Assembly (NCBI GenBank): GCA_012838515.1
Contig: DUPA01000013.1
Location: 1 to 21,139, forward strand
Length of the DNA stretch: 21,139 nt
Source: Natronincola sp.
Lineage (GTDB): Bacteria; Bacillota; Limnochordia; Darwinibacteriales; Darwinibacteriaceae
Direction: 5' to 3'
The position numbers and the translations under genes were made by a program. This document shows positions 1,535 to 19,854 of the stretch, one piece after another. Each line of letters begins with the position of its first letter. The first letter of the stretch is position 1. The notes under the pieces were generated by a model. The model searched no databases. It worked only from the letters and a program-made list of their open reading frames with translations, and was not told the origin of the DNA.

Positions 1535-2275
1535 TTAGTTAGATAGGAGTCGTTTATACAATTTGGCTATCTTTGATTGCGGATGTTCCAAAACCTGCTT
1601 AGGATGACCTTCTTCAACAATTTGACCTTCGTCCATGAATACAATTCTATCGGCTACTCGTAATGCAAAAGAAATCTCGTGTGTAACTATAACCATTGTG
1701 GTTCCTGTGCTTTTAACTAAATCTTCCATTACATCTAAGACCTCCCCTACTAAAATGGGATCTAACGAAGCGGTAGGTTCATCCCATAACATAATTTCGG
1801 GATTTGTAACTAAAGCACGGGCAATGCCCACCCTTTGTTGCTGTCCACCGCTTAATTCATGTGGTCTCCGCGAAGCAGTTGATTTGAGGCCAACCCTATC
1901 TAAGGCTGTTTCGGCTTTTTCCCGTGCTTCCTCTTTTTCCATACCTGCAAGCACCAGATGAAACATGACATTTTCTAGCACTGTGAGGCGTGCTACAAGA
2001 TTAAACTGTTGAAAAACAAATCCCACATTTCTTCTTAATTTTTGCAAATCATCATGGCTTAGTTCAACTACATTTTGGCCATCAAGAATAATTGTACCTT
2101 GATCAGGTTCTGTTAGGCGATTGACACAACGAATAAGGGTGGACTTTCCGCATCCCGAAGGACCCATAATAACAACAGTTTCACCCTTTTTTACATCCAA
2201 ATTTACGCCGTCCAATGCAACGAGTTTCCCGTAACTTTTTCGCACGTCTTTAAGTTCAAGCACTACTTTCACCAC
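1535..2275 (-). CDS. ABC transporter ATP-binding protein, GlnQ/HisP/ArtP (polar amino-acid type I importer) class; partner of 2277..4400
   Basis: Walker A GPSGCGKSTLIRC, Q-loop FQQFNL, LSGGQQQRVGIARAL, Walker B MLWDEPTASLDP, H-loop VIVTHE. The track start GTG at 2275 is 1 nt after the upstream stop. A GTG at 2263 has a better RBS (AAGGTGGTGA, 5-nt spacer) and may be the real start. Confidence 0.85.
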   Translation of the reverse strand: MVKVVLELKDVRKSYGKLVALDGVNLDVKKGETVVIMGPSGCGKSTLIRCVNRLTEPDQGTIILDGQNVVELSHDDLQKLRRNVGFVFQQFNLVARLTVLENVMFHLVLAGMEKEEAREKAETALDRVGLKSTASRRPHELSGGQQQRVGIARALVTNPEIMLWDEPTASLDPILVGEVLDVMEDLVKSTGTTMVIVTHEISFALRVADRIVFMDEGQIVEEGHPKQVLEHPQSKIAKLYKRLLSN

Positions 2276-2276
2276 C

Positions 2277-4400
2277 TTAAAATTTCTGTTTCCAACGATT
2301 TTGCAAGTTCAATAATCCCGGCCTGCTTGAGGGAATAAGAATTTCCCTCATTATTTGCACATTAGATAGGCCTAATGACTGCCCGGCCATTACCTCCATA
2401 CTATTTATGGGGCTAAATCGTTCCGCAAAAACCACGACAAGCATGCCTAGGGAAAAGCCCACAAGGACAATTACCGGAAGACTAAAGAAGGGAATTTGGG
2501 CCCGGCTAAGCTTAAACACGCAGGTTAAAATCAGGCTACCGACAATTCCTCCCGTTACCAAAAGGGGATCAAATACTTTCATCCACCATTTTTTAATGGG
2601 GGTTTTTGTGGATCGAACATATTTTAGAGTGCTAAAAATGGTTGCATGATCCAAAATTAAAACGATGAGCGTAAAGACTATTGAAAGTAAGCCTGCCACA
2701 ATTGAGCGGACTTCCTTTAAAATCCTGAAGATTTCACCTCGAGGATCCGGATTAATCATTCCCACTGAAGTGAAGTATATATGAACTAAAGGATTGTCCA
2801 ATTTATCCCTAAAGAGCTTTTCTAACCCTTTCTCATCAAATTCTTTACCTTGAACTAAAATTTGAATCCTCTCTCCCGGAATTACTTGTCCTCCAAGATA
2901 AGTGTTGATTAAGCGAATAGATTGTCCTATTTCTTCATCGCGTAAATCAGGGAGGGTATTTCTCACATGACTAATCTGTTCGATGATCGCTGTTAAATCA
3001 ATGCCTTGAACATTGGCTATCTGTGTACTAATTCCATTTAAACTACGGCGCATCTCTTCAATATCAAGACTTTCTAATGAATCTAACGAGCCTTCACCGG
3101 TATTTATTGCCGCCTGCGCCAGCGTTTGAAATAGACCGTTTAGTAGTAAAGAAACTAAAAACTGTTCGCCTGAGGCTTTCGCATCGCCCTTGCTAATACC
3201 CTCGTTGAGTTGTCGCATTTGCACTTGCAAGACTTCCAATTGCATTAGTGCTTCTTGGAAGGTTGTCAAAACTGCATCGGCGTTACTTACGGCCTCATTA
3301 GCTTGGACCGACAGCTCTTCTAATTCTTCTAAAAGCCTTAAACTTTCATCAATGGCGTAAGCCAAACGATAACGTTCATTTTCTATTTCACCATCACCTA
3401 TTAATTCTCCGCGTCCGCTCTCCCCTTCCCAGCGATAGGCAGGTAAAACCAGTTTGTCCATGGATTGTACAGGTGATCCTTTCACTATCATTCCTTTAAC
3501 ATTAATGGGCGTAACCTCAGTGATCTCCACAACCAAGTCATCCACAAAGTCTTCTTTTGATACTAAAACCAAAAGTTCACCTACGCCCAAATGGGCGCCT
3601 TCTGCGCCAATAATCGTTACCTTAGACGCATAGCCGGCTAAAAATGCACGCATCTCCATCAAGGTTTTCAAAAAGGCATCTAGATCTTCGCCATATTCTG
3701 CCGAAGTTATATTAGTATAATCCCCCTCTATCATGGGATAATGGGCGCGTAAAATGTCTAGTGCTTGTTGTCCCACTTCTCCGGTGTCAACTTCAAAACC
3801 CATGGGGAAGCGAAGCTCTAAAATCTCGTAATTTGCCAAAATAACATCTATGTCTTTAGAAACTCGCGAAACGGTATCTTCTGCATCTATCACAGCAATC
3901 AAGTTGTTCCCGTCTTGTACAACAAAACCCACACCGTTTACTTCACTAATCAATTCCCGCAATTCTTGACGCACTCCGGGGTGTACGCCGCGAATCAAAA
4001 CGCTAGGCTCCACCATGAGGGTATACCCATTTAGCCCCGGAACCGCGCCAAAGTAGGAGGCAATGCTTTCGAGCACCTCCTTTGTTCGTTGCGCCTTCGG
4101 TAAACCAAAAAATATATTGGCTTGTCCCGCGATTGTGAATGTTTGATTTAGTTTAAATCCGGGAAACGATTCTTCACCAATGCGTTCTAATTCTCGCATA
4201 GCCGCCTCTTTCGCTTCCTCGCGAATATGCAAAATCAAATCGTACTCTCCATATTCACCAATCATATCATCTAGGGTATCACCAAAATATGTGTCAATAG
4301 CCCATGCAACCCCTTGGGAAAACACGGAGCCAATTATTATTGTCAATATCAACAAGATGATTACATCTTGATAAAAACCATCGCGAAAAAAAGAGAGCAT
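2277..4400 (-). CDS. Atypical ABC membrane subunit: 1 N-terminal TM + ~530-aa periplasmic domain with long helical/coiled-coil segment + 3 C-terminal TMs + cytoplasmic EAA-loop-like tail; function unknown
   Basis: 707 aa. GAGGAGGAAGGG RBS. TM1 at aa ~12-34 and TMs at aa ~566-590, 611-631, 637-659. Leu/Glu/Gln-rich helical stretch at aa ~341-500. C-terminal ...EVMAGQSLGLSNVQIMREILIPSSRPGLL fits G-x9-I-x-[LI]-P of the EAA coupling loop. Tightly coupled to the downstream ATPase. Confidence 0.6.
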   Translation of the reverse strand: MLSFFRDGFYQDVIILLILTIIIGSVFSQGVAWAIDTYFGDTLDDMIGEYGEYDLILHIREEAKEAAMRELERIGEESFPGFKLNQTFTIAGQANIFFGLPKAQRTKEVLESIASYFGAVPGLNGYTLMVEPSVLIRGVHPGVRQELRELISEVNGVGFVVQDGNNLIAVIDAEDTVSRVSKDIDVILANYEILELRFPMGFEVDTGEVGQQALDILRAHYPMIEGDYTNITSAEYGEDLDAFLKTLMEMRAFLAGYASKVTIIGAEGAHLGVGELLVLVSKEDFVDDLVVEITEVTPINVKGMIVKGSPVQSMDKLVLPAYRWEGESGRGELIGDGEIENERYRLAYAIDESLRLLEELEELSVQANEAVSNADAVLTTFQEALMQLEVLQVQMRQLNEGISKGDAKASGEQFLVSLLLNGLFQTLAQAAINTGEGSLDSLESLDIEEMRRSLNGISTQIANVQGIDLTAIIEQISHVRNTLPDLRDEEIGQSIRLINTYLGGQVIPGERIQILVQGKEFDEKGLEKLFRDKLDNPLVHIYFTSVGMINPDPRGEIFRILKEVRSIVAGLLSIVFTLIVLILDHATIFSTLKYVRSTKTPIKKWWMKVFDPLLVTGGIVGSLILTCVFKLSRAQIPFFSLPVIVLVGFSLGMLVVVFAERFSPINSMEVMAGQSLGLSNVQIMREILIPSSRPGLLNLQNRWKQKF

Positions 4401-4427
4401 TACCCTTCCTCCTCACCTAGTGCCTTT

Positions 4428-4456
4428 ATTATAACACGCTCTAGCTGGGTTTTAAG
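4428..4456 (-). promoter_or_regulatory. Candidate sigma-70/sigA promoter with extended -10 for the ABC pair (and possibly fabZ-lptB)
   Basis: Minus strand reads TTAAAA/CTTAAA, a 16-17 nt spacer, then TGTTATAAT (TGn-extended -10; TATAAT = 4433..4428). It lies ~28 nt upstream of the ATG at 4400. Confidence 0.4.
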
Positions 4457-4457
4457 C

Positions 4458-4479
4458 GGTAATACTCTCTAGTATTTCC
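4458..4479 (-). terminator. Weak AT-rich hairpin just after lptA stop (possible partial terminator/processing site)
   Basis: GGAAATACT-AGAG-AGTATTACC on the minus strand (6 perfect bp plus a flanking GG/CC). There is no U-tract, so termination is doubtful. Confidence 0.2.
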
Positions 4480-4484
4480 AATTA

Positions 4485-5057: not shown

Positions 5058-5691
5058 CTTTTTCCACCTCCGTCTCGAAAATCACAACTCCGTAAAAGTC
5101 CATTAGATCATTGTCTAAATCATAAATGGCTTCGCTCATTTTCCAAGAAAATTCGCGATCCTTTATTTCTACACCCGCCTTTAGATGCAATAAACCGGTT
5201 TCCATTTCTAAAATCATTTCTTCCGAAACAATAGCAAGTCCCTGCCAGTCAATGTTCGCCTGACCGGGCGATGTGAGAGTGCTATCCTTTTCGTTTAAAA
5301 TCAAAAGATCGCTTTCCAGCTTAAATTCATCGTCGATTTGCACTATTACCGCGTTATATAATTCTAAATTATTTTTTCTCCGATCCCAGATTGCCTTTTC
5401 AGCATCTACGAGAAAATAAGGTTCTTGTTCTTGGAAAAGCGTAATTTTATCCATTTCAGTTAAAGTAACCTGACCCTCTGCTTGTAACACGGAGTTGGTT
5501 AAAATCTCCCATTGCCTTTCTCCATCCTTGCGACCAATCAATCGAGATTCATGTAGTTGAACACTTGGTGGAATATTTTCCGCAGGTGGAGGTGGATTAA
5601 ACCAAACTAGATAAATAAAATAACAGATAATAGTCACGATAATCAAAACAAAGCTAATAATGATCAATTTAGTCTTGGCGGTTAGATTCAT
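5047..5691 (-). CDS. lptC: Inner-membrane-anchored LPS transport protein LptC-like
   Basis: 214 aa with a single N-terminal TM anchor (KLIIISFVLIIVTIICYFIYLVW) followed by a beta-rich periplasmic domain. It sits between lptD and lptA. ATG overlaps the lptD stop by 1 nt (TAATG). Confidence 0.65.
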   Translation of the reverse strand: MNLTAKTKLIIISFVLIIVTIICYFIYLVWFNPPPPAENIPPSVQLHESRLIGRKDGERQWEILTNSVLQAEGQVTLTEMDKITLFQEQEPYFLVDAEKAIWDRRKNNLELYNAVIVQIDDEFKLESDLLILNEKDSTLTSPGQANIDWQGLAIVSEEMILEMETGLLHLKAGVEIKDREFSWKMSEAIYDLDNDLMDFYGVVIFETEVEKDEQ

Positions 5692-7844
5692 TATTCTATA
5701 CCCCCGATTATATCAGTAACCTCGTCTAAATCGAATAGGCTCATGCCTTCCTTAGAGTCCCAACCGATAGGCATGTTGGGAAATGCATTGATAGTATATT
5801 GCAAAGCGACCCGTTTTTCTACATGATCGTAATTTAGTTCTAGCGTGCGACAATGTAAATCCCTAGTAAGAGTTACATGCCCTTGGATAAACTCTTGATT
5901 TAGAGGCTCAAAGATACTTTCGTACCCAACACGCCAAGTTTTACCCACCGGAACAGATATACGAGAATCTATACGTTCCACTGTTTTAGTTGTGGGATGA
6001 TAACGTAAGCCAAGTTTAAATCCTACATCCTCAGTTTTGTAATCCACCATGGGCACAAGAGTAAGTGTTTCTTTTGTATTTAAATCATGGTAACCGTACA
6101 AATCAAACGATAAACTTTTTGTAGCTTTCCAATTCGCCCTAAAAATAAGGGGACTAAACCCTTCGGATAAAAAATCATATCTACTATTTACGCTAGTTCG
6201 CAACTTAGAATTTGTATAGCTGAGTTCAAAGCCTAAATCTTGTAAAGGCTTTTGCTGATCAAACCGGAAAGGAGTGAAACCCCACACATCTCGTCTTCTA
6301 TAAGTGTTTGTAAGGCGAAGACCTTTCACTAACTCTTGACTTACCGACACGCGACCATAGGTCCAAGTTTGTTGTTTTCGATCACCATAGTAGCTTGTAG
6401 ATAGATCACCTTGGTAGGTTACTCTGGTTTTATCAAAAGGGCGCCAAGTTTGCGATTTTAAACTAAGTTGTCCAAAAACTCGGGATTGCTTTGTTAAAAC
6501 GGGGCGTTCTTGATATCTTCCCACCACTAATTGGGATCTAAATGGAGATTTTTTTGCTCCAAAATCACTATTTTCCCATTTGAATTCGGGAATTCTCTGA
6601 ATACTGCGCCATGGCTGTACTTCTGATTCGAAAAGATCCGGATTCACCTGCTGTTGTACTGCCAGTGTGAATTTATGCTTATCTTTTACATACGTGGTTT
6701 CACCTAAATAGTCAATTAATCGCAAAGTTTGAGTAGTCTCACGCTCAGTAAAACTACCTCTTAAATCAAGCTTCCAATCTTTTGTTAAATTCTGCGACCA
6801 TAGTCCACCGTACTCTTCTAAACGGTGCACGAGTAATCTGGGGGTTAGCTTATAGTTATACCAGAGCTCTGTTTTGAGTCTAGGCAAATTAAGCGCCACG
6901 CTATTTTTAGTGGTGAACTCTTGGCGCATCCAAGAATTTTCCTCACTGGTATTTGTTTTCAAAGTTAAATTAGAGATTTTCAATTCGTGATTCCATGCTT
7001 TTTTCGATAAAATATCAGCGTACCCAGGCAAACCATGAAGATGTAAAGAACCCTTTCCTAATTTCTTCAGATCGTAATTGTGTTTAGCGCCAATAGCTAC
7101 GCCCAAATTAGAATAGCCGTCTAGATGAATATTGCCATAGGAATTCTCGTTAAAATAATAATTGAAGGTATTTAACATATAATAACCTTCATACTCCCCA
7201 TAACCCACTACAGGTAAATTAAAAAATCTATCTTCATCCATTGTATCTAACGGAATCACTAGATATGGCCAATAAAAGATAGGTATCTTACCCTCGTAAT
7301 AAGTTACACCCTTGATTATTACCCGTTTACCGAGGATGACTTCAATTTTTTTTGTTGCAATATGATAATGACTATTCTCCAATTCACAAGTGGTAAAGGT
7401 GGCTTTTTCCACGGTATAGCTCTCATCATCCAACTCTACAGCATTGCCAAAGACAAATAAGGTACCTGTTTCGTCTGCCAAAAGAATCTCGGTGCGGGCC
7501 TCTTCAAAGTTACCTTCACCAGTTTCTAAATTATAAGATAAAAAGCGCCCGGTAACCTCTTGTTCCCCTTGGATGAGACTAACGTTACCCTTAAGCTCAG
7601 CTTCGCTCGTAGATAAATTAACCCATAATTCATCACTTTTGAGTATAAAATCTTCACTAGTTATGACAACATTTCCTTGGGCTTTAAAAACATTATTATT
7701 GAAATCGTATGAGCCAAAGTCCTCCGCGACAATTTGCACTCTCTCTTCGCCACAATAGGCAACGGGTACGAAGCTAAGAGTGCTAACCACTATAAATCCT
7801 AATATAAACAAAATACGGAAGAGCTTTGGCTTTTTTAGGCCCAT
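5691..7844 (-). CDS. lptD: LPS-assembly outer membrane protein LptD (OstA N-terminal domain + large beta-barrel)
   Basis: Signal peptide, then OstA-like N-domain (FKAQGNVVITSEDFILKSDELWVNL...AELKGNVSL), then ~500 aa of alternating amphipathic beta strands rich in Y/W/G. I place the start at ATG 7844 (AAGGAGA, 7-nt spacer) rather than the track start at 7874. Confidence 0.8.
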   Translation of the reverse strand: MGLKKPKLFRILFILGFIVVSTLSFVPVAYCGEERVQIVAEDFGSYDFNNNVFKAQGNVVITSEDFILKSDELWVNLSTSEAELKGNVSLIQGEQEVTGRFLSYNLETGEGNFEEARTEILLADETGTLFVFGNAVELDDESYTVEKATFTTCELENSHYHIATKKIEVILGKRVIIKGVTYYEGKIPIFYWPYLVIPLDTMDEDRFFNLPVVGYGEYEGYYMLNTFNYYFNENSYGNIHLDGYSNLGVAIGAKHNYDLKKLGKGSLHLHGLPGYADILSKKAWNHELKISNLTLKTNTSEENSWMRQEFTTKNSVALNLPRLKTELWYNYKLTPRLLVHRLEEYGGLWSQNLTKDWKLDLRGSFTERETTQTLRLIDYLGETTYVKDKHKFTLAVQQQVNPDLFESEVQPWRSIQRIPEFKWENSDFGAKKSPFRSQLVVGRYQERPVLTKQSRVFGQLSLKSQTWRPFDKTRVTYQGDLSTSYYGDRKQQTWTYGRVSVSQELVKGLRLTNTYRRRDVWGFTPFRFDQQKPLQDLGFELSYTNSKLRTSVNSRYDFLSEGFSPLIFRANWKATKSLSFDLYGYHDLNTKETLTLVPMVDYKTEDVGFKLGLRYHPTTKTVERIDSRISVPVGKTWRVGYESIFEPLNQEFIQGHVTLTRDLHCRTLELNYDHVEKRVALQYTINAFPNMPIGWDSKEGMSLFDLDEVTDIIGGIE

Positions 7845-7860
7845 CAGTATCTCCTTAATT

Positions 7861-8937
7861 CTAACGTAATTCATCGGCCTTGATTAAAAATATAGATCCC
7901 ATTACGGCAAATAAAACATTTACGAGCCAAGCGGCTACCGGAGCGGGAAAAACTTCGTTAATTCCTAAGGAACGGGAAACAGAAATTGCCACGTAGTAAA
8001 ACAATAATACAATTAGGCTCACCACTATACCAAAGGATCTACCCCCCTTGCCTTTTAAGGCTAAAGGAGCACCAAAAAGGGCAAAGACAAAGGAAGCCAT
8101 GGGCAAAGACATCTTCATATGATAATCAACTACGAAAGAGCGTACCTTAAGCCCACTACGTTGAAAGCGCTCAATATATTCACCCAGTTCTTTACGGCTC
8201 ATTTCATCAACCGTTCGCTGGTTACCTAAATACATTTCACCATCTTGCTCAGTAACTATTTCCATGCGTTTAAAGCGACTTTCGAATTCAACAAAGCCAT
8301 CATCGTCAAGTTCCTGTAATATTCCATCGAATAGTACCCAAACATTCTTTTCAAATATCCCCGTTTTTGCACTCACTAAGCTGGGAAAATCAGAATCTCC
8401 CAATTCGTACACGAGAATATTCTTCAATTCATTCGTCTTGGTCTCTACTTCTTCGATATAAAAGTAGCGGTCATCTCCGCCATGGAAAAATACATTTTCC
8501 TCTACAATGGGAACTCCATCGGAAAAGATAATTCGCCGCAAAGTATTTTCGAATTCATGATTTGCCTGAGGAACGATCTTTTCCGCGGCCCAAAAATTGA
8601 ATATACTTATTAATAATCCTAAAATTACAATTGGAACAATTAAACGGGGAAAAGATACTCCGCTTCCCCGTAATACTGTCATCTCATTATCCTGCACTAA
8701 ACGCCCTATGGCCAATAAGGTGGCAAATAAGCTTGCTATGGGCAAAGTCATTACCGCCGTTGCCGGAATTCGATACAGAAGCATTTTAGCCACAGTAAAG
8801 ACAGCCACTTCATTGACGAAAATCAAATCGGTAAGCTGAAATAGCAGACCACTTAATAGGACCACAGTAAACCCAAAAACACAAAAGAGAAAGGGTCCTA
8901 TAAAGCCGCGTATTAAATAACGATCGAAAATCCTCAT
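7861..8937 (-). CDS. LptF/LptG-family LPS export permease (YjgP/YjgQ); only one copy in window
   Basis: 358 aa. N-terminus MRIFDRYLIRGFIGPFLF is typical of LptF/G. Three TMs, a periplasmic beta-jellyroll insert, then three TMs. GAGGTG RBS. Confidence 0.88.
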   Translation of the reverse strand: MRIFDRYLIRGFIGPFLFCVFGFTVVLLSGLLFQLTDLIFVNEVAVFTVAKMLLYRIPATAVMTLPIASLFATLLAIGRLVQDNEMTVLRGSGVSFPRLIVPIVILGLLISIFNFWAAEKIVPQANHEFENTLRRIIFSDGVPIVEENVFFHGGDDRYFYIEEVETKTNELKNILVYELGDSDFPSLVSAKTGIFEKNVWVLFDGILQELDDDGFVEFESRFKRMEIVTEQDGEMYLGNQRTVDEMSRKELGEYIERFQRSGLKVRSFVVDYHMKMSLPMASFVFALFGAPLALKGKGGRSFGIVVSLIVLLFYYVAISVSRSLGINEVFPAPVAAWLVNVLFAVMGSIFLIKADELR

Positions 8938-8969: not shown

Positions 8970-9599
8970 TTAAAAAGAAACTTTATAATTCAAACCTAAA
9001 AGTAAACCCGAATTCGTCGCTAAACCTAATTTAGCTTTGAAATTTGGATTAAAATGGGACATTATCCCACCATTAACTCCGCCATTATCGTATTCCAAGA
9101 AAACAACAGTAGTTGGCCCGGCTTTTTTATTTCCTTTTTGAACTTGCACAGGATTTAAAACCGCAGTGACACCGGCCATGGGTCGTACATTGGCGCCTGT
9201 ACCAACTCCGATTCCTGCATGACCCCTAATAACGGGAGTACCTAGTTGCTTGCTCAGGGCAAGATAGATTTCCCCGCCGCCGCCTGAACCTAGAGCGCCC
9301 CCTACGGCAAGGGCAGGCGTTGTCTGGGTTTCACCCATCAATCCAACCTTTAAGCTACCTGCTAAACTACTTCCACCGCTCCCAAACCATTGGCTAACAC
9401 CAATGTTCAAGCCAGAATATATACCATAATTCAAATCCAGTGTATTACCACCGCCTACAAAGGAATAATCAACTTCCAATGTTCCGGGGTTTAATGTATC
9501 GCCTGTGGGAATTGAGAAAACGTTTGAGGCAAAGACCGGTGCTGAGATAATTATCAGCATTAAAAACACAATTTGCATAAGTAAGATTCTTTTAGACAT
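8970..9599 (-). CDS. Gly-rich small outer-membrane beta-barrel protein, unassigned family
   Basis: 209 aa. Signal peptide (...SAPVFA/SN). About 10-12 short amphipathic strands separated by G-rich turns. C-terminal beta-signal ...LLLGLNYKVSF ends in a terminal Phe. Confidence 0.6.
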   Translation of the reverse strand: MSKRILLMQIVFLMLIIISAPVFASNVFSIPTGDTLNPGTLEVDYSFVGGGNTLDLNYGIYSGLNIGVSQWFGSGGSSLAGSLKVGLMGETQTTPALAVGGALGSGGGGEIYLALSKQLGTPVIRGHAGIGVGTGANVRPMAGVTAVLNPVQVQKGNKKAGPTTVVFLEYDNGGVNGGIMSHFNPNFKAKLGLATNSGLLLGLNYKVSF

Positions 9600-10211: not shown

Positions 10212-10847
10212 TTACCTATTTGCCAGTTGCCTACGCAATTCCGGTGCTAGATTAGAGATCTTTTCTTCGAAAATCTTCCAACGTTCTTCTTGAAAAACAC
10301 TAAATTGCTCCGCCAGTGTTCCTTCTAGGCGGGTTCGCAATTCTTCCTTTTCCGTGACCCATATCGCTTCATGCTCTAATCTTAATTCGGCTAAGCGCAT
10401 CTCGAGTTCAAGTTGAATCTCCTTTTGCAATTCAATAAACTCACTGTTTGATTCTGAAATTTGCTGCATTTTTGCAGACTGCTGATCCTCATTTAATGAA
10501 ACAAGAACTAATTCCAATTGATTGCGAAGCCTCTTCTTAGCAATTTCCCTTTGCAACTCGGATGCTTTCGTTTCAAATTCACTAATCAGTTCCTTTGTAG
10601 CATCATGCAATTCTTGTTCCTGAGCTCTGCGTAACTGACTCTCTTGTTCCATCAAGAACTGCTCACCTTTTTCTATAAGTTCCTGTTCATAAGCTTTTAG
10701 AATTTCTTCTTCTTCTGCCAATAGTCGTTCGAACTCAAGTACATTGTTGTCCTCTTTAGCTTCAAATCGCGCCGGTATCATAAGTGTTGAGGCAGATAAA
10801 ACTAGGCTCAAGACAACTAACAGGGTAACTTTCACGTAAGTGTTCAT
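10212..10847 (-). CDS. Secreted, highly acidic coiled-coil protein (possibly divergent Skp/OmpH-like); function unknown
   Basis: 211 aa. Signal peptide, then almost uninterrupted E/L/Q/K/R helical sequence. Lacks the recognisable OmpH terminal beta strands. Confidence 0.45.
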   Translation of the reverse strand: MNTYVKVTLLVVLSLVLSASTLMIPARFEAKEDNNVLEFERLLAEEEEILKAYEQELIEKGEQFLMEQESQLRRAQEQELHDATKELISEFETKASELQREIAKKRLRNQLELVLVSLNEDQQSAKMQQISESNSEFIELQKEIQLELEMRLAELRLEHEAIWVTEKEELRTRLEGTLAEQFSVFQEERWKIFEEKISNLAPELRRQLANR

Positions 10848-12808: not shown

Positions 12809-14551
12809 CTAATATATATTTAAATCAAAACTAACTATGCCATCTAAGACAAACTGTGTTGAAAGTCGTACCCTTTGTCCGTTTGCGGAGTTATCATCCC
12901 ACCGATAATAATTAGGTATTTCCACATTATCATCGAATTCTTCATCATCAAGCTCTTCTTCGGAGTTACTGTTTTCCAACAGTGGGTAATATTCCAAGAT
13001 AATTTCATTGTTTCGTTCCCCATCCATATACTCCGCAATTAAAACATCAAGCGTCTCAGCCCCGGAGGGAGAAGATTTAATTGGCTCATCATCAAAATCA
13101 TTTTGACTTAAGATGCTGGGGTCTACAGGTGGTTTCATCAAGTAGTAACCTTCGGCACCACTTCGCACCGCCACATTCATTAAACCGGCAGACGCATCTT
13201 CCGGGATCTCCATACGAAGAGTCCTTACTTCACTGGCACCACGGTAGGGGCGAATTGTTACCTCAACATCGACGTTTTCACCCGGTCTAACACTTTGCTT
13301 ATTTGGACGTGCCGATTCGATAGTGGCGGTTTTGCGTTCAAGCTCCACTTCCACATCAACCTTCACATGCTTTAAATCGACTTCTTGCAAACTATTATTA
13401 ACCAATAGTTCCAACCCCGAAAGCAAATCGGTTAAAGACCACACCGCAATATCAGTATCACTATAAAACAGATTTTCCCTAATAATTCTCTGGGAAAGGT
13501 TATCGGCGATAAATTCGAGACGCACAAAGGATGTCCCGGCCCCTAGGCGATCTAAGGTGGCATCTACACCTTGATACGCACTGGAAATTGTTAAGGGAAT
13601 TATAGCACTTTCATCTCTTATTGTCTCCACATAAAAATCTTCCTTGATGTTACGATCTTTATCAATAACAGATATGGAAACAGGCAAGTAAACAGATTCA
13701 ACGCCCAGTTCGCCACCGATGCCAACTATGCGATCTTGTTTAATATTACCAATGGTCGAACCTAAAGAAACAATTTTGCTCGGCATGTCAATGCTGGGAA
13801 GGGTATAGTGTACGTATGCTGCAGAAGCAAAATAATCCACCGCCCCTTTATGAGTAAACGGATGACCGAAGCCAATGAATTTACCATCATCCCTCACATG
13901 AGTTACCGTACCAAAAGATGCAACTTGAAAATCGCCCCTCAAAAGTTGCACGCCAACCATACTTCCTGCCTTGAGCGGAGCAGCTACAACCTCAACACTG
14001 CCTAAGGCGGGCATTGTTTGTACAGCACCCAAACCAAGTGCCTTCTCTAGATATGATGTGTTCCTCTTGTTTAGCCCTTGAATAATCAATGGAGATCGTA
14101 CCGGCTCAAAACCCTCGGGTAAAATTGGTTCCTCTTCCACAATTGTACTGGGAAATTCCTCATATATCTTAAACATATCGACCGCTGGAGTGACTAAGCC
14201 GATACGATGATCAGTCATGGCATATGTATATCCCAGCGCGCCTAATAAACGATCTTGAATATAGATCGGACTGCCGCTCATACCCTGTGCAATGCCGCCG
14301 GATTCGTCCATAATTTCTCCGCTAACCTTGACCATAATTAAATTATTTAAAGGGGGACTTTGGGGAACCAGGCCCAAAACCTCTACGTTGAATTTTTCGA
14401 TTGTATTGCCGGAAACAACCGTTTTACCAATACCTCTTAATCCGGGTCTTATATCCTCAACGGCGAACAACTCTTCGGCAAATCCCCATGTATTGCCACA
14501 TAGAATAAATACTAATAAAAATAGACCTATTCGTAATCGCAATTTACGCAA
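12809..14551 (-). CDS. Secreted SpoIVB-like serine peptidase (MEROPS S55-like domain) with long C-terminal extension
   Basis: 580 aa, TTG start with AAGGGGTGA RBS, and a signal peptide. Segment EKFNVEVLG...GGIAQGMSGSPIYIQDRLLGALGY resembles the SpoIVB Ser-motif region. Segment FGTVTHVRDDGKFIGFGHP...IGNIKQDRIVGIGG resembles the SpoIVB His-motif region. The C-terminal tail is acidic. Confidence 0.7.
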   Translation of the reverse strand: MRKLRLRIGLFLLVFILCGNTWGFAEELFAVEDIRPGLRGIGKTVVSGNTIEKFNVEVLGLVPQSPPLNNLIMVKVSGEIMDESGGIAQGMSGSPIYIQDRLLGALGYTYAMTDHRIGLVTPAVDMFKIYEEFPSTIVEEEPILPEGFEPVRSPLIIQGLNKRNTSYLEKALGLGAVQTMPALGSVEVVAAPLKAGSMVGVQLLRGDFQVASFGTVTHVRDDGKFIGFGHPFTHKGAVDYFASAAYVHYTLPSIDMPSKIVSLGSTIGNIKQDRIVGIGGELGVESVYLPVSISVIDKDRNIKEDFYVETIRDESAIIPLTISSAYQGVDATLDRLGAGTSFVRLEFIADNLSQRIIRENLFYSDTDIAVWSLTDLLSGLELLVNNSLQEVDLKHVKVDVEVELERKTATIESARPNKQSVRPGENVDVEVTIRPYRGASEVRTLRMEIPEDASAGLMNVAVRSGAEGYYLMKPPVDPSILSQNDFDDEPIKSSPSGAETLDVLIAEYMDGERNNEIILEYYPLLENSNSEEELDDEEFDDNVEIPNYYRWDDNSANGQRVRLSTQFVLDGIVSFDLNIY

Positions 14552-14570
14552 ACCATCACCCCTTAATTAT

Positions 14571-14696
14571 TTACTCGGGACTTGCGATCACCACTATGGC
14601 GTTACTAACCGCTCGTTCACTACCATCAGAGGGGATATTCAAGACCAAGTTTCTAACGACCATGGTTGTAGAACCGCCATCATCCAAATTCATAGC
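14571..14696 (-). other. In-frame continuation of the glycosidase ORF beyond the TAG at 14699..14697 (41 codons, conserved C-terminal motif)
   Basis: The same frame reads AMNLDDGGSTTMVVRNLVLNIPSDGSERAVSNAIVVIASPE then TAA (14573..14571). This matches the NLDGGGS...PSDG.ER.V.NA C-terminal core of the phosphodiester glycosidase (NAGPA/DUF2233) family. Confidence 0.75.
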
Positions 14697-15977
14697 CTAC
14701 ACTGCCCCAAGCTCTATCAAAAAATCTGCCAATTCATTTAATGTCATACCAACACTGATATTAGGTTGTCGTCCATTAACAGTCACCAATAGGAGTTTGT
14801 TATCCGCGGTAATTCCCAAAGCCGTTCTTGGATTGCGACCAATCAAGATGTCGTTTTGAAAACGTTCTTCTTTACCCGTAATTTCCACTTTTCCATCACG
14901 CACTAATCTGGGACCGCCGCCGATAATTTGCCTGATATCTGTCTCTTCCCACTGGCAAATTAATTCGGTATTAATCTGTACTTTATCGCCAATTTCCAAA
15001 GTCTCTAAGAAATCTTTTGCTTCACCTGTGCCCGACAGCACAAAACCACTGGGGGGAATTGGACTATTTCCCAATTGGATTCTTGTAATCTCCCCGTCTA
15101 TAACGGTTACCTCGTGACCGAAATGATTAGTATTAGTTTGATTTCCATAGTGATAATTAAACGCTACTAATTCGTCGAATTCCCGTGGTCTATTTAGGCC
15201 ATGTACTTCGAAGAGAAAAGTTCCATCTTCCATTAAAACTTCACCTAGAAAATCCACGTTTCCCATGACTAGTGAGCCTTTTCCATCCATTCCCAAAGCC
15301 GTGCGATTCGCATAGGGTTCACTAATTAACTCACCATCAATCATCAATACTCCCAAAGGACGCCCGTTAGGGGCAAAATATGCTCCGTTAACTGCGGCAA
15401 ATGCTCCGAAACGTTCACTTATCCTACTTACATATTCAGAACCGAACACTTTATTTTGCGCCAAGCCTAGTTTAACCTCGATACCCTGTTGTAAATCAAC
15501 CTCGAGGTAATTTACCACATTAGGCCCAAATATATCGCCGCGCCGTTGATGACCATAAATTATTCCCCGCTCCACAAAACGCCGAGAGCCTTGCACATAA
15601 GTCTTATCGATTTCTATCTGAATAAATTCATCATTCTCTCGAATTTCCGGCTTAGGCACTAGATACTTAAATTCCAAAACTAGCCGAGACCCGGTGGGCG
15701 TTTTAGAAAAACGCATTTCTTTAAAGACTACATCATTATACCTTGTAACAGTGGGAAACTCAAAATTATCTACATTGGAATCAATAATAATCTTCATGGG
15801 TTTGAGTGTAGTAGTGAGCCTAAACTCTTGATCTTGACTTTTCGGTAAAGTAAGTATAATCTGCTCAGGATAAACATTTAACTCTTGCCGCTGATTGGCA
15901 AAAACTAAATGTGAGCAGAAGATGAAAAATAATATTACAAAAATTACTACAAGTGAATGTTCGTATCTGTGCTCCAC
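14697..15977 (-). CDS. Phosphodiester glycosidase family protein (DUF2233/NAGPA domain) with N-terminal AMIN-like domain; ends prematurely at an in-frame TAG (possible pseudogene or read-through)
   Basis: GTG start at 15977 with AAGGGGG RBS, and a signal peptide. NAGPA-like motifs FAAVNGAYF, GGGPRLVRDG, RNPRTALGI...LLLVTVNGRQ. The tentative AMIN-like part is KPMKIIIDS...GSRLVLEFKY. Confidence 0.75.
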   Translation of the reverse strand: MEHRYEHSLVVIFVILFFIFCSHLVFANQRQELNVYPEQIILTLPKSQDQEFRLTTTLKPMKIIIDSNVDNFEFPTVTRYNDVVFKEMRFSKTPTGSRLVLEFKYLVPKPEIRENDEFIQIEIDKTYVQGSRRFVERGIIYGHQRRGDIFGPNVVNYLEVDLQQGIEVKLGLAQNKVFGSEYVSRISERFGAFAAVNGAYFAPNGRPLGVLMIDGELISEPYANRTALGMDGKGSLVMGNVDFLGEVLMEDGTFLFEVHGLNRPREFDELVAFNYHYGNQTNTNHFGHEVTVIDGEITRIQLGNSPIPPSGFVLSGTGEAKDFLETLEIGDKVQINTELICQWEETDIRQIIGGGPRLVRDGKVEITGKEERFQNDILIGRNPRTALGITADNKLLLVTVNGRQPNISVGMTLNELADFLIELGAV

Positions 15978-16096: not shown

Positions 16097-16408
16097 TTAG
16101 TCGTCGTCAGAGACATAACGTGACATTTGATCGTAAATTAACTTTGCCAAACCCATGCTCTGTCCACGTGCCGAGTTAGAAGAAATCTCCTGATCTAACA
16201 TGGATTGAAATAGTTTTTCGGCCTTTTGATCTCCAAAGAGCTCGTTTTCAGGTACGGTACGTCTCATTTCCGTTAATAGCTGATTGAGAAATAATGCTTC
16301 AAATTGTTCGGACGCTTCCTTCAAAGCCCTTTTGGAAGTAGAAGTTCGCCGTTCAAGTGTTTCCGCTTGGTCAGCGGCTATATTGCTAGGATCCCAATTA
16401 ACACGCAC
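16097..16408 (-). CDS. flgJ: Flagellar rod-binding protein (FlgJ N-terminal domain only; no hydrolase domain)
   Basis: 103 aa, GTG start with AAAGGGGGT RBS. Rod_binding-type motif EQFEALFLNQLLTEMRRT....LFG......LFQSMLDQE....A....MGLAKLIYDQ. Confidence 0.8.
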   Translation of the reverse strand: MRVNWDPSNIAADQAETLERRTSTSKRALKEASEQFEALFLNQLLTEMRRTVPENELFGDQKAEKLFQSMLDQEISSNSARGQSMGLAKLIYDQMSRYVSDDD

Positions 16409-16421
16409 CGTAAAACCCCCT

Positions 16422-17558
16422 TTAGATAATAACTAATTCACCAAATAGTGCACCTGCCGCTTTAATAGCTTGTAGAATCGCAATAATATCCCTTGGTGTG
16501 GCACCAACCGCATTTAAAGCGTCGACTAAGTCCTGAACATTCGGGGCACCGCCTAAAACGGTAAATTGGCTGTGCTCTTCATCCACATCCAATGTACTGG
16601 CTTGACCAACAACCGTACTACCGCCTGAAAGAGACGGAGGTTGTGATACAACCAATTCATTTTTTACTTGAACTTTTAGATTACCATGGGAAACCGCCAC
16701 AGTCGCAACGCGAACGGACGCCCCCATTACAACCGTTCCCGTCCTTTCGTTAATGACAACACGGGCATTAACATCAGGTCTAATGGGTAGTTCTTCAAGT
16801 TCAGCAATAAACCCTACTAAATTACTTAAATATTCCTCGGGAACCATAATATCAACGGTGGATTGGTCATAAGCACTGGCCAGAGTTTCTCCGTAAACAT
16901 CATTTACTACTTTGGCCAATCGCGAAGCAGTGGTGAAGTCAGGTTCAAATAATACTAATGAAATTTGACCATCGTTGGCCAAATCATCTTTCATTAGTTC
17001 CCGTTCGACTATGGCACCGTTGGGAATTGTTCCCACAGTTGCATGGTTTACTTGTGCTCCTCCCCCGCCTCCACGTACCACAAAACCACCTATGGAAACA
17101 GAACCTTGGGCAACGGCAAAAATTTGCCCATTTGCAGCTTGTAAAGGTGTTTGTAGTAAAAGCCCACCTTGCAAACTACGGGCATCACCAATTGACGAAA
17201 CGGTAACATCAATGCGATCTCCACTTCTTAAAGATGAAGGCAAATCGGCCGTAACAGTTACCGCAGCAATGTTACGCATCCTTAAGTCATTTGCGGAAAC
17301 ACTTATACCGAATCCTTCAAGCATATTAGCAATCATTTGAATGTTAGCTCTCGAACCGGCTCCATCACCTGTGCCCTGAAGGCCAACTACTAAGCCAAGT
17401 CCATAAATCTGGTTATCCCGCACTCCAAGTACACGAGCGACATCTTTAACCCGTACAATGGGTGTATCGTACATGATGGGCTCAACAGTCTGGGCGCCTG
17501 CTAAACTCGCACTAATTAACACTACTATGAGAGCTAACCATTTTGTCTTCTTAAGCAT
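16422..17558 (-). CDS. flgI: Flagellar P-ring protein FlgI
   Basis: 378 aa with a signal peptide. Canonical FlgI motifs: RVKD...VRDNQ..GYGLVVGL.GTGD, NIAAV.VTA.LP, PLQAANGQ.FAVAQG, ARVV.NERTGT.VMG, DLV.ALNA.GA.P.D.I.ILQA.K.AGAL. Confidence 0.95.
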   Translation of the reverse strand: MLKKTKWLALIVVLISASLAGAQTVEPIMYDTPIVRVKDVARVLGVRDNQIYGLGLVVGLQGTGDGAGSRANIQMIANMLEGFGISVSANDLRMRNIAAVTVTADLPSSLRSGDRIDVTVSSIGDARSLQGGLLLQTPLQAANGQIFAVAQGSVSIGGFVVRGGGGGAQVNHATVGTIPNGAIVERELMKDDLANDGQISLVLFEPDFTTASRLAKVVNDVYGETLASAYDQSTVDIMVPEEYLSNLVGFIAELEELPIRPDVNARVVINERTGTVVMGASVRVATVAVSHGNLKVQVKNELVVSQPPSLSGGSTVVGQASTLDVDEEHSQFTVLGGAPNVQDLVDALNAVGATPRDIIAILQAIKAAGALFGELVII

Positions 17559-17572
17559 CTGGGCTCCTCCTT

Positions 17573-18157
17573 CTAAAACAACCAGTTAAAGATGCGAGTT
17601 ATAATTCCGGGATTATTTTTGTCTGCCACAATACCCGTTCCTAAAAAAGCGATTTCAGCATCTGCCACAAATGTGGAAAGCACTGTATTATCAGGTGTAA
17701 CATCTTGATTGCGAACTAACCCTGAAATCACAATTTCTTGTTCGTCACCATTTATGAGGATCTTCTGACGACCTTCTATTTTCATAGTATTATTGGGATA
17801 CGTCTCCACAACTTTTGTTGTTAGCTTAGCCTGCAGACTTCCTCCGCGGCTGGTGGAACCATCTGATTTAAAGGAATCTCCACCGCCTACCTTTAATAAA
17901 GGAATCAAGTCTGCCAAAACACCCACACCGGGTCCCACCGAAACTTCCGATTCTTTTCCCGCGTTAGTATTAGCGTTTTGCCTAGCTTGCGCTTGCTCCA
18001 CAATTATAACTGTAACCAAATCACCTGGGTTTCTCGCCTTTTTGTCTTGAAACATAGATGTCCCATCCACGGGAAATAAAGAGTTTGCGCTTGCATTAAC
18101 CGAAACAATCAGCATTAACACTATTAAATTCAGAAACACAACCTTATTTATCTTCAT
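17573..18157 (-). CDS. flgH: Flagellar L-ring protein FlgH (no lipobox Cys)
   Basis: 194 aa. FlgH motifs SLF.D.KAR..GD.VTV...E, T.V.E..PNG...I.G...I..N.......SG.VR..D...DNTV.S...ADA.I. Type I signal peptide ...VSVNASA/NS. Confidence 0.9.
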   Translation of the reverse strand: MKINKVVFLNLIVLMLIVSVNASANSLFPVDGTSMFQDKKARNPGDLVTVIIVEQAQARQNANTNAGKESEVSVGPGVGVLADLIPLLKVGGGDSFKSDGSTSRGGSLQAKLTTKVVETYPNNTMKIEGRQKILINGDEQEIVISGLVRNQDVTPDNTVLSTFVADAEIAFLGTGIVADKNNPGIITRIFNWLF

Positions 18158-18939
18158 GGAGTACCTGACCCCCTCATGTTTACCTGAACAGTCTCTTTAT
18201 CAATTATTTCCGCTTGCACAATTTGTTTTGACAATGAATTTTCCACGGATACAGTTTCTCCTATACCACCCGTACCTTTTGCCACACCGGGAGCCGTCAC
18301 CACCAAAGAGCCGGTATAAACAACAATTGTAACATTATCGCCCCGTTCAATTACTGGTATAGGTTCCACATTTAAGCTCGTAAAAGCGGTATCTTGTAAG
18401 ATTGTTCTTTTTGCCCTTAGACCAATAAGTTCTTCTATGCCACGTCCATCGGGTTTAGCATTTCGCAGCTCAACTTTGGCAATCTTTAGATCTTCAGCGG
18501 TAATAATGTCACCTCTTCTAAGATCTCGGGCAGCAACAACCACATCGTGTAGTAAAATACCATTTTCTTCTGCCTTAGTGTTTTGTTCTTTTCTTTCGTT
18601 TCTTCCAAATATTTGAACCTCAAGAGGGCCGGCAAACTCAACTTTTTTTACATCTATACCTGCTTGCCGTAGACGTACTTCAATTTGCCCCTTAGTGAGT
18701 CTTCGAGAGCTTCCCGGTCTAGGGGCCGCGCCTGCATTTACCTTTGAGACCTCAGCCACCAGTTCCTTTGGGCCTGTGATCTCCGCTATTTCCCCCAAAA
18801 GAATCCATTGCCCCTGTACCTCTGCGTTTTCAGATAAATTAAGAATAACTTGTTCTAACTCGGTTGCTCCACATGCCGAGATAGCAAACAAAAGACCGAT
18901 TAAAACCAAGATTACACGCTTAAATCCCCATAACTTCAT
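18154..18939 (-). CDS. flgA: Flagellar P-ring assembly chaperone FlgA
   Basis: SAF/ChapFlgA-type sequence (RRGDIITAEDL..., ERGDNVTIVVYTGSLVVTAPGVAKGTGGIGETVSVENSLSKQIV.A). Start placed at ATG 18939, giving signal peptide MKLWGFKRVILVLIGLLFAISAC. The track start at 18981 would overlap flgG and lacks an RBS. Stop overlaps the flgH start by 4 nt. Confidence 0.8.
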   Translation of the reverse strand: MKLWGFKRVILVLIGLLFAISACGATELEQVILNLSENAEVQGQWILLGEIAEITGPKELVAEVSKVNAGAAPRPGSSRRLTKGQIEVRLRQAGIDVKKVEFAGPLEVQIFGRNERKEQNTKAEENGILLHDVVVAARDLRRGDIITAEDLKIAKVELRNAKPDGRGIEELIGLRAKRTILQDTAFTSLNVEPIPVIERGDNVTIVVYTGSLVVTAPGVAKGTGGIGETVSVENSLSKQIVQAEIIDKETVQVNMRGSGTP

Positions 18940-18943
18940 GATT

Positions 18944-19732
18944 TTATCTGCGTAAATTGTTCGCTGTTTGGAGCATATCATCTGAGGCTTGAATTGCCTT
19001 TGAATTCGTTTCGTAAGCCCTCTGTGAAACGATCATGTTTACCATTTCTTCAACTACTTGTACATTGGACATCTCTAAGAAGTTCTGACTTAAAGTACCG
19101 AACCCATCAAGCCCGGGGGTTCCCACCATGGGATCTCCGCTGGCGGCTGTTGCAGAATAGAGATTTTTACCTTCGCTTTTTAAGCCCGCGGCATTCACAA
19201 AGCGCACTATTTCCAGTTCGCCGATTTCTTCAGGTGATTCTCCTCCCGGTCGCATAATACTAACTGTCCCATCCGTTCCGATGCTTAGTTCTAATGCTTC
19301 TTCAGGAATCACAATTTCCGGTTCGATTGGAAAACCGTCGGAAGTTGTCAATCGTCCATATGCATCTAATTTAAAGGCACCATCTCTAGTGTATTTTACG
19401 CCACCGTCCGGCAATAAGACTTGAAAGAACCCATCACCTTCGATTACCACGTCTAATGGATTATCAGTCTGCTGATACATACCTTGAGAAAAGATCCTTT
19501 GCGTTGCCACGGTCCTAACACCATGACCGATTTGAATTCCCGTTGGTACTTGGGCTCCTGCTGTTGAAGGAGTACCTGCATACTTAACCGTTTGATATAA
19601 AAGATCCTGAAAATCTACCCTGCTTTTTTTAAATCCTGTAGTATTTACGTTCGCTAGATTATTGGAAATCGTATCAATTTTTGTTTGTTGAGCCACCATA
19701 CCGGAGGCAGCCGTCCATAAAGATCTCATCAT
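18944..19732 (-). CDS. flgG: Flagellar basal-body distal rod protein FlgG (FlhP-like)
   Basis: 262 aa. N-terminus MMRSLWTAASGM.AQQ..ID.ISNNLANVNTTGFK and C-terminus LE.SNV..V.EMV.MI..QRAYE.NSK.IQ..D.ML. AAGGAGGG RBS. Confidence 0.9.
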   Translation of the reverse strand: MMRSLWTAASGMVAQQTKIDTISNNLANVNTTGFKKSRVDFQDLLYQTVKYAGTPSTAGAQVPTGIQIGHGVRTVATQRIFSQGMYQQTDNPLDVVIEGDGFFQVLLPDGGVKYTRDGAFKLDAYGRLTTSDGFPIEPEIVIPEEALELSIGTDGTVSIMRPGGESPEEIGELEIVRFVNAAGLKSEGKNLYSATAASGDPMVGTPGLDGFGTLSQNFLEMSNVQVVEEMVNMIVSQRAYETNSKAIQASDDMLQTANNLRR

Positions 19733-19854
19733 AACAAAAAACCCTCCTTGTTTGTTCGTCTAAAAACAATGCAAGAAAAGGGGTTAGAAACCATCTCTGT
19801 CGGTCGATAGTCTCATAGGCTTCTGTTTACCAGTCCGGCCCGTTCCCCAAAACA

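Follow-up and report, generated by a model that had tools for sequence, protein, structure and literature searches.

We analysed a 21,139-nt stretch of a Natronincola sp. genome (contig DUPA01000013.1, positions 1 to 21,139; hereafter the window), in which two adjacent genes encode a 707-aa membrane protein and an ATP-binding cassette (ABC) ATPase. This gene pair is a fixed component of the lipopolysaccharide (LPS)/outer-membrane gene cluster of the Limnochordia, and we lean slightly towards reading it as a non-importing, envelope/LPS-associated ABC machine of that lineage. Judged from sequence, the complex descends from a polar-amino-acid-type (type I) importer. In the course of its remodelling, the two transmembrane segments (TMs) after the coupling loop were lost, and an N-terminal TM and a modular periplasmic arm of ~520 aa, whose length is lineage-specific, were gained. 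We infer the envelope role from synteny, phyletic restriction and architecture. The two genes and the parts of the membrane subunit are as follows.

1535..2275, minus strand: ABC ATPase (nucleotide-binding domain, NBD), 246 aa, GTG start, GlnQ/HisP class (open reading frame (ORF) and translation; Pfam/NCBIfam)
2277..4400, minus strand: membrane subunit, 707 aa, ATG start, stop codon at 2277-2279 (ORF and translation)
4296..4364, minus strand: TM1, aa ~13-35, continuing as a periplasmic stalk helix to aa 47 (hydropathy; AlphaFold2 (AF2) helix 9-47)
3810..4238, minus strand: two predicted ferredoxin-like (beta-alpha-beta-beta-alpha-beta) domains, aa 55-197 (55-128 and 133-197; AF2, Foldseek)
3381..3809, minus strand: predicted helical linker, aa 206-257, and six-stranded beta-barrel, aa 260-340 (AF2, Foldseek)
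2895..3380, minus strand: predicted coiled-coil hairpin, aa 341-502, with helix 342-403, a low-confidence tip at 404-446 and returning helices 447-502 (AF2)
2751..2870, minus strand: predicted membrane-proximal beta-alpha-beta-beta unit, aa 511-550, then a long helix into TM2 (AF2)
2415..2744, minus strand: TM2-TM4, aa 553-662 (hhalign, weak Pfam/NCBIfam matches, decoy test)
2280..2414, minus strand: cytoplasmic tail with the EAA/coupling loop, E669...G677-x9-ILIP690...RPG...N701, and the C-terminus (translation; conserved columns)

ORF calls placed the 707-aa frame and the ATPase gene next to it where the initial annotation had put them, with a single nucleotide (2276) between the subunit stop codon and the ATPase GTG start; the ATPase gene is translationally coupled to the membrane-subunit gene. 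For comparison, ORFs were called in 82 related loci (78 from a scan of GTDB species-representative genomes) and labelled against reference proteins, a procedure that was error-prone in the high-GC loci. In most loci with callable genes the NBD gene lay directly downstream of the subunit gene. In high-GC Limnochordales the two are naturally fused into single chains of 930-996 aa with Pfam ABC_tran at the C-terminus (P0226, P0229, P0233, P0245, P0251 and P0262); the window holds none of these fusions. Translational coupling through the 1-nt spacing, conserved adjacency and natural fusion together establish that the two genes encode one ABC functional unit, presumably with the stoichiometry (membrane subunit)2(NBD)2. 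The cultured Carboxydochorda subterranea carries a 967-aa subunit-ATPase fusion (WP_324716177.1), and this natural single-chain form is convenient for biochemistry, with cryo-electron microscopy feasible.

Kyte-Doolittle hydropathy gave four hydrophobic segments in the 707-aa protein (aa 5-23/13-35, 566-584, 613-631 and 641-659), and an AF2 model of the membrane subunit alone, built from a 60-sequence alignment, placed membrane helices at 9-47, 553-598, 612-631 and 641-662. Both agree with the initial annotation, which had described one N-terminal TM, an extracytoplasmic part of ~530 aa (~520 aa by our count) and three further TMs. Because the TM2-TM3 loop is basic and the coupling motif is cytoplasmic, the ~520 aa between TM1 and TM2 must lie outside the cytoplasm. 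This layout, in which a large periplasmic domain separates TM1 from the other three TMs of each subunit, is the topology of type VII ABC systems. The protein ends ...GLSNVQIMREILIPSSRPGLLNLQNRWKQKF; the translation bears out exactly the G677-x9-ILIP690 motif read earlier and the stop 17 aa after P690. The tail conforms to the EAA-x3-G-x9-I-x-LP pattern of the coupling helix in type I permeases, with E669, A672 and G673 ahead of G677. In an alignment of 16 sequences E669, A672, L676, G677, L678, I683, I689, P690, R693, P694, G695 and N701 were invariant, and in the 60-sequence alignment E669 was invariant and the other tail positions were at least 90% conserved. The C-terminus shortly after the EAA loop is itself conserved in these 60 members, and it is at this point that the fusions pass straight into the NBD. 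The two TMs that should follow the EAA loop, noted earlier as missing, were absent from all full-length members inspected. Close homologues (n = 120) are 696-739 aa long.

Five kinds of search bore on the origin of TM2-TM4 and the coupling loop. Pfam BPD_transp_1 (PF00528) matched aa 603-698 to profile positions 13-112 of 184 with E = 0.006, and 24 of the 60 members, scanned singly, matched it at E ≤ 1 (best E 9e-4); NCBIfam PotC matched with E = 2e-4, at 20.8 bits against a threshold of 326. In hhalign, the C-terminal 160 columns of the family aligned with E. coli GlnP, HisQ, HisM, ArtQ and ArtM over 148 columns at a probability of 45-68%. This alignment mapped TM2-TM4 and the tail onto permease positions 1-159 of 219, with the EAA loops in exact register, such that TM2-TM4 correspond to TM1-TM3 of the 5-TM type I (PAAT) permeases. 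The same query returned probabilities of 16% or 0% with LolC, LolE, FtsX and MacB. The C-terminal profile, run against all Protein Data Bank (PDB) sequences at E ≤ 10, found PotC and MetI plus one noise match, aligned at the EAA loop (MAGQALGLSNVQIMREIVIPSSRPGLLN with MetI EASRAMGATPMQIVRKVLLPEALPGLVN), and the full-length profile found one noise match only. In a decoy test with 3,000 shuffled sequences and reversed controls, MetI ranked first, HisQ second, HisM 7th, ArtQ 15th and GlnP 34th among the ~2,900 scored sequences, and LolC, FtsX, LolE and MacB fell into the noise at ranks 372-1279. MetI as the sole query found a family member among the ORFs of the related loci with E = 8.8e-4. Since these searches agree, TM2-TM4 and the EAA loop are remotely but significantly homologous to the type I importer permeases (MetI, PotC, HisQ/M, GlnP), from which they descend.

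The initial annotation had likened the membrane subunit to MacB, LolC and FtsX. As to topology (1+3 TMs, N-terminus inside, large periplasmic insert) the likeness holds, but hhalign and the decoys show no homology behind it. Membership in the FtsX/MacB family was rejected, there being no sequence or profile similarity and an NBD of another class; the scan of the 60 members at E ≤ 1 listed neither FtsX (PF02687) nor MacB_PCD (PF12704).

The ATPase matched Pfam ABC_tran with E = 1e-42, and its best match was NCBIfam GlnQ (274 bits). It is 51% identical to E. coli GlnQ, 46% to HisP and 43% to ArtP, compared with 41% to the MacB NBD, 37% to FtsE, 36% to LolD and 33% to the window's own LptB, in keeping with the GlnQ/HisP class to which it had been assigned. 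Walker A, Q-loop, signature, Walker B and H-loop are intact. As the ATPase is closest to the GlnQ/HisP importer class, its ancestry agrees with that of the membrane subunit.

The periplasmic region has a modular design in the AF2 model. The Leu/Glu/Gln-rich helical stretch that had been noted at aa ~341-500 corresponds to the predicted helices 342-403 and 447-502, and the ascending helix, at 62 residues, would span ~93 Å if straight. In the 16-sequence alignment the hairpin shows strong sequence conservation on both of its arms, which suggests specific contacts rather than a passive spacer. Nearly all length variation in the family comes from insertions of +52 to +134 aa at the hairpin tip. 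Around the membrane-proximal unit Y501, G504, V506, I507, P551 and R554 are invariant. A short subfamily of 575-650 aa (P0178-P0204, P0214, P0216 and P0235) lacks the beta-barrel region (profile positions ~230-350) and retains the two ferredoxin-like domains, the coiled coil, the TMs and the EAA loop; the barrel is thus dispensable for the core design.

Comparison of the full AF2 model with the PDB by Foldseek, which the initial annotation had proposed, identified no characterised family: there was no significant global match, only generic ferredoxin/ACT matches and weak architectural ones to MmpL5, Wzc, AcrB and FtsEX. The top match was MmpL5 (9mvz_D, E = 2e-4) with a TM-score of 0.11; Wzc matched weakly (E = 6e-3, prob 0.14), and Pfam gave no match to HlyD/MFP families. 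The ferredoxin-like pair matched tandem ACT domains locally (prob up to 0.98, E ~6e-3), and 29 of the 60 members gave weak Pfam matches to NapD. A separate model of aa 198-348 matched eIF2-gamma/EF-Tu domain III and the F1/FliI N-terminal barrel (prob 1.0, E ~1e-2); in this prediction the matches are to generic small barrels only. The earlier statement that the periplasmic domain fits no named family holds: Pfam, NCBIfam, PDB sequence and Foldseek searches gave generic matches at most. No binding-protein fold was present among the 50 Foldseek matches listed, and the Pfam listing for the 60 members contained neither a solute-binding protein (SBP) family, SBP_bac_3 included, nor an MCE (MlaD) domain. 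Two candidates were rejected here: an MCE protein, because MlaD was not listed in the Pfam scan and the barrel fits the generic EF-Tu-domain-III type only, and a binding-protein-fused GlnP-type permease, because no SBP fold or family was listed in the Foldseek and Pfam searches and the post-EAA TMs are missing.

An exhaustive HMMER search found the family in 238 clusters among 1.84 billion (1.84e9) representative proteins and brought in no flood of ordinary permeases. A homologue search with an alignment that included the TMD-NBD (transmembrane domain-NBD) fusions gave 2 matches, presumably as NBD words swamped the candidates. Most source genomes are metagenome-assembled genomes (MAGs) labelled simply 'Bacillota'; all informative source names are Limnochordia, Limnochordales or Ca. 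Darwinibacter (for example Ca. Darwinibacter acetoxidans and Carboxydochorda subterranea). Rather than being widespread in monoderms without outer-membrane linkage, the family carries Limnochordia-only names where these are informative, together with lpt/lpx synteny; nothing that the initial annotation had named as refuting its reading was encountered. The Limnochordia are diderm by electron microscopy and outer-membrane gene content (PMC11456536). Three loci labelled as Betaproteobacteria, Chitinophagales and Aneurinibacillus MAGs (L069, L080 and L081) show the same lpt-subunit-lpx synteny and are probably mis-binned or mislabelled contigs. Source annotations read 'hypothetical protein', 'ABC transporter permease' or were clearly wrong transfers. 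Pfam, NCBIfam and the searchable literature held no description of the family; Taib et al. 2020, said to have defined the Limnochordia outer-membrane cluster and lying outside that search, may list the genes as unnamed members.

Gene order around the pair is strongly conserved. The order lptF/G-lptD-lptC-lptA-[subunit-NBD] recurred in most loci with callable genes, down to 28-30% protein identity. Downstream of the pair, most lineages have lpxC-fabZ-lpxA-(lpxI)-lpxB-(msbA or lptB), and the window's clade has fabZ-lpxB-lptB. The neighbours named in the initial annotation, lptFG-lptD-lptC-lptA upstream and fabZ-lptB downstream, were recovered in the window by Pfam and NCBIfam. The linkage to outer-membrane genes that had been suggested for diderm Firmicutes proved tight and exclusive, to lpt, lpx and bam genes. 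The label 'orphan', in turn, was misleading: the pair has a fixed place in the LPS cluster, and in most lineages it apparently stands at the head of the lpxC-fabZ-lpxA operon. LptB, LptF/G and LptC, and MsbA in some loci, are encoded alongside the pair; it must therefore be an addition to the Lpt system and not a substitute for it. As had been remarked, no lpx gene adjoins fabZ in the window. In the window's clade fabZ stands without flanking lpxC, lpxA, lpxI and lpxD, genes that the more distant clades do have. Relatives carry an lpxB-like gene between fabZ and lptB; in the window itself this gene, too, is missing, with a gap of 135 nt left (window region 862-1440; compare L005-L036 and L001/L003).

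The pair also has a conserved promoter of its own, with the following elements upstream of the subunit gene.

4428..4455, minus strand: predicted promoter, with -35-like TTAAAA at 4450-4455, a 16-nt spacer and an extended -10 TGTTATAAT at 4428-4436 (scan, 10/12 with TG)
4408..4417, minus strand: Shine-Dalgarno sequence GGTGAGGAGG (sequence; conserved upstream in relatives)

As a single match in the window the extended -10 was not above chance in the promoter scan. Across loci, 72 of 80 had TGnTATAAT in the 100 nt ahead of the subunit gene, mostly at a distance of 27-28 nt from the start codon. The background rate was 0.0047 per 100 nt, and of the 132 occurrences in 2.8 Mb, 72 fell at this site, in agreement with the extended -10 promoter proposed earlier. 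The promoter sits in an 84-nt gap before the subunit gene, whereas the upstream lpt genes overlap one another. A terminator scan found no terminator-like site between the NBD gene and fabZ, and the transcription unit thus probably reads through into fabZ/lpxC. Over the -35 region (window 4428-4480, minus strand), a block of ~25 nt, ATTACCACTTAAACCCCAGCTAGAG, is nearly invariant in L005-L036, L051 and L054, species whose proteins are just 50-73% identical, and other clades keep different blocks on the -35 side (for example AGGAATTGCATATG in L037-L048). This block may be an operator or UP-like element; an Rfam scan of the window gave no match, so it is not a known RNA.

We believe that the job of the pair most likely lies in LPS or outer-membrane lipid assembly or homeostasis, because the subunit gene stands between lptA and lpxC/fabZ and bears a promoter ahead of the lipid A genes. 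In the mechanism that we propose, the homodimer of the membrane subunit would form a 4+4-TM bundle, into which ATP-driven closure of the NBD dimer would be passed via the EAA helices. Extensions of TM1 and TM2, serving as a pair of stalk helices, would carry the motion of the bundle to the periplasmic module, which would move, and whose hairpin of at least 90 Å would reach toward the outer membrane. Such action would resemble the mechanotransmission or extraction of MacB, LolCDE and FtsEX and not alternating-access import, and its target could be LPS, another outer-membrane lipid or component, or the Lpt bridge itself. A dimer has just two hairpins, too few to seal a duct, which makes a lever, arm or extractor more plausible than a channel. 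The fuller proposal, in which truncation of a type I permease produced a 4+4-TM architecture with C-terminal EAA coupling and an ATP-driven trans-periplasmic arm that is integral, possibly essential, to LPS/outer-membrane assembly in the Limnochordia, we regard as possible but doubtful.

Several points weigh against an envelope machine of this kind. Guilt by association can mislead, and the link to lipid A genes is not universal, as the window's clade has no adjacent lpxC, lpxA or lpxD. The NBD is close enough to GlnQ in sequence for a function still related to amino acids to fit as well. The BPD_transp_1 match scored 16.7 bits, below the gathering score of 26.4. The AF2 model is of moderate confidence (pLDDT 75, pTM 0.45), and the hairpin tip is poorly modelled. 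Finally, an invariant A32-x-A34 (AWA; window 4299-4307, minus strand) at the periplasmic end of TM1 resembles a signal peptidase I site and could be one, in which case cleavage would leave just three TMs. The cytoplasmic N-terminus before TM1 is equally invariant (F5, D7, G8 and D12), which argues for retention of TM1.

Among the other explanations, the one that survives best is an FtsEX-like signal transmitter, whose coiled coil would switch on a peptidoglycan hydrolase or a factor that remodels outer membrane-peptidoglycan tethers, with nothing transported. The 1+3 TM topology with a large periplasmic domain is the same, FtsEX appears, weakly, among the global Foldseek matches (rank 41, E = 0.097), and a pair of hairpins that cannot make a sealed conduit would suit a transmitter. 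FtsEX itself acts through the coiled coils of EnvC and PcsB, as described in PMC7668044 and PMC11627006. We nevertheless consider this explanation unlikely: the pair has no sequence relation to FtsX or FtsE, no gene for a hydrolase or amidase activator is consistently adjacent in the loci, and its conserved partners are lpt and lpx genes, not division or peptidoglycan genes.

An importer or sensor of a solute (a polar amino acid or similar), in which the tandem ACT-like domains replace the binding protein, seems to us distinctly unlikely. Permeases with fused binding domains do exist, as in GlnPQ of Lactococcus, and the succession of an N-terminal hydrophobic segment, ~500 aa outside the membrane and then a TMD parallels them; the NBD with its 51% identity to GlnQ, the PAAT/MetI-like EAA loop and the best local Foldseek matches, which are to amino-acid-binding ACT domains, point the same way. 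However, in type I importers the two post-EAA TMs contribute to the translocation pathway, and these are missing in all members inspected. The ACT matches are weak (E ~6e-3) and the fold is generic, no SBP_bac_3 signal was listed in Pfam for the 60 members, and the capture of a solute does not call for a conserved hairpin whose length varies. Nor does import explain the strict lpt/lpx synteny and the restriction to a diderm lineage. No homologue of GlnH, HisJ, ArtJ, ArtI or MetQ and no canonical permease was encoded within ±10 kb in ~80 loci, and none of the window's genes encodes a solute-binding protein, in line with the earlier remark that no such gene is nearby. With no SBP nearby, the post-EAA TMs missing and a periplasmic domain that does not have a binding-protein fold, the pair is not a canonical amino-acid importer, a conclusion that the initial annotation had already drawn.

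Equally improbable, in our estimate, is a sensor or regulator of LPS homeostasis that tunes LpxC or the downstream lipid A operon and does not itself move lipid. E. coli LpxC is controlled through membrane proteins with periplasmic domains (YejM/LapB), which offers a parallel, and in most lineages lpxC immediately follows the pair under a conserved promoter common to both. Yet the window's clade retains the pair though lpxC is not adjacent, an output domain is absent, and an ATPase cycle would be an expensive way of sensing. An efflux or secretion pump whose built-in adaptor hairpin docks on an outer-membrane channel, like the MacA/HlyD hairpin or the MmpL5 coiled coil, is very improbable, for although the top Foldseek match is MmpL5 (with its porter domains and periplasmic coiled coil) and a beta-barrel joined to a hairpin is reminiscent of adaptor proteins, the TM-score is 0.11, two hairpins cannot seal a duct, Pfam found no HlyD/MFP similarity in the 60 members and the loci examined have no TolC-like gene.

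The envelope machine that we favour shares features with several known systems. With type I permeases the subunit shares a cytoplasmic EAA loop of identical spacing (ALGLS..Q....IVIP..RPGL..N, compared with AMGAT..Q....VLLP..LPGL.N in MetI), TM2-TM4 that align with TM1-TM3 of the 5-TM permeases and a partner NBD of the GlnQ/HisP class. Unlike these permeases, it stops 17 aa past the motif without the last two TMs, has an extra N-terminal TM and the ~520-aa periplasmic module, and scores below the family thresholds; the pair has no binding protein, fused or separate, and its context is LPS biogenesis, not nutrient uptake. With type VII systems (MacB, LolCDE, FtsEX) it shares four TMs, an N-terminus inside, the large periplasmic domain between TM1 and TM2, TM1 and TM2 extended as stalk helices, a cytoplasmic helix after TM4, predicted ferredoxin-like (possibly Porter-like) modules next to the membrane and, probably, a non-importing, envelope-directed role. 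It differs from them in having no FtsX-domain or MacB_PCD similarity and an NBD outside the LolD/FtsE/MacB class, in coupling mainly through the C-terminal EAA loop where type VII uses the TM2-TM3 helix, and in carrying a hairpin and beta-barrel in place of the Sabre or X-lobe.

The predicted long antiparallel helical hairpin on alpha/beta base domains with flanking TMs recalls MmpL4/5, MacA/HlyD and Wzz/Wzc/KpsE, and its length varies between lineages as it does in MmpL4/5, the MFP hairpins and the PCP proteins. There is no sequence relation to any of these, however, and the subunit's hairpin is built into an ABC permease, with no more than two copies. Like LptB2FG-C, MsbA and MlaFEDB, the pair is ABC-powered and lies in the same cluster as lpt and lpx genes; unlike them, it belongs to a different TMD and NBD family and has no MCE domain.

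The fold-based classification of ABC systems assigns (5-6)+(5-6/8) TMs to type I and 4+4 to type VII (Thomas et al. 2020, PMC8386196). The family joins the helix count of type VII with type I ancestry, and its bundle may have retained a type I-like fold. There is a real chance that the pair represents a distinct TMD architecture and a new component of outer-membrane biogenesis. If so, it would be a previously unknown outer-membrane biogenesis machine of diderm Terrabacteria. A type I scaffold would then be convertible to a MacB-like non-importing mechanotransducer through loss of the post-EAA helices, and the 4-TM design with a periplasmic domain would have been reached by convergence from a different ancestor, which would extend the fold-based classification. 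Diderm Firmicutes are key models for the gain and loss of the outer membrane and lack several textbook envelope machines. An ABC system that is found throughout a lineage, bears a promoter and is fixed between lptA and lpxC offers a concrete candidate for an envelope function that is otherwise missing or is carried out in an alternative way. In the literature, Lol is practically absent from Terrabacteria and Mla is present in just a few Limnochordia, which may leave room for an alternative ABC-driven lipid or lipoprotein function. One might speculate that, in a lineage with practically no Lol and sparse Mla, the pair extracts or delivers a lipid (LPS, phospholipid or lipoprotein).

All genes of the 21-kb window lie on the minus strand. 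Starting from the flagellar end, Pfam and NCBIfam identified flgF/G, flgA, flgH, flgI and a rod-binding protein, followed by a NAGPA-domain protein, a SpoIVB-like S55 peptidase, BamA, a 211-aa protein, Skp/OmpH and a 209-aa protein, then LptF/G, an LptD-like 727-aa protein, LptC and an LptA-like protein upstream of the 707-aa subunit gene, and finally the subunit gene, the ABC ATPase gene, FabZ and LptB. The LptD-like protein (window 5691-7874, minus strand) was recognised solely by its N-terminal OstA/LptD_N part, at 45.8 bits for NCBIfam LptD against a cut-off of 683; the barrel presumed at its C-terminus was matched by no Pfam or NCBIfam model. The gene shares 14 nt with lptF/G and directly adjoins lptC.

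Directly upstream of the outer-membrane cluster lie the flagellar genes (two flgF/G genes, flgA, flgH, flgI and a FlgJ-like rod-binding gene; window 16097-20598, minus strand); in Negativicutes and Halanaerobiales a conserved envelope locus likewise contains motility genes (PMC5007114). Between these and bamA stand two genes (window 12809-15977, minus strand) for a 580-aa protein with a partial SpoIVB/S55 peptidase domain and a TTG start and a 426-aa protein with a NAGPA (phosphodiester glycosidase) domain; the S55 gene adjoins bamA also in relatives L013 and L019. The 209-aa and 211-aa proteins (window 8970-9599 and 10212-10847, minus strand) had no match in Pfam or NCBIfam. The order BamA-211-aa protein-Skp-209-aa protein-LptF/G is kept across the window's clade, and in L001, L026 and L028 the place of the 209-aa gene is taken by a YjbH (PF06082)-like gene.

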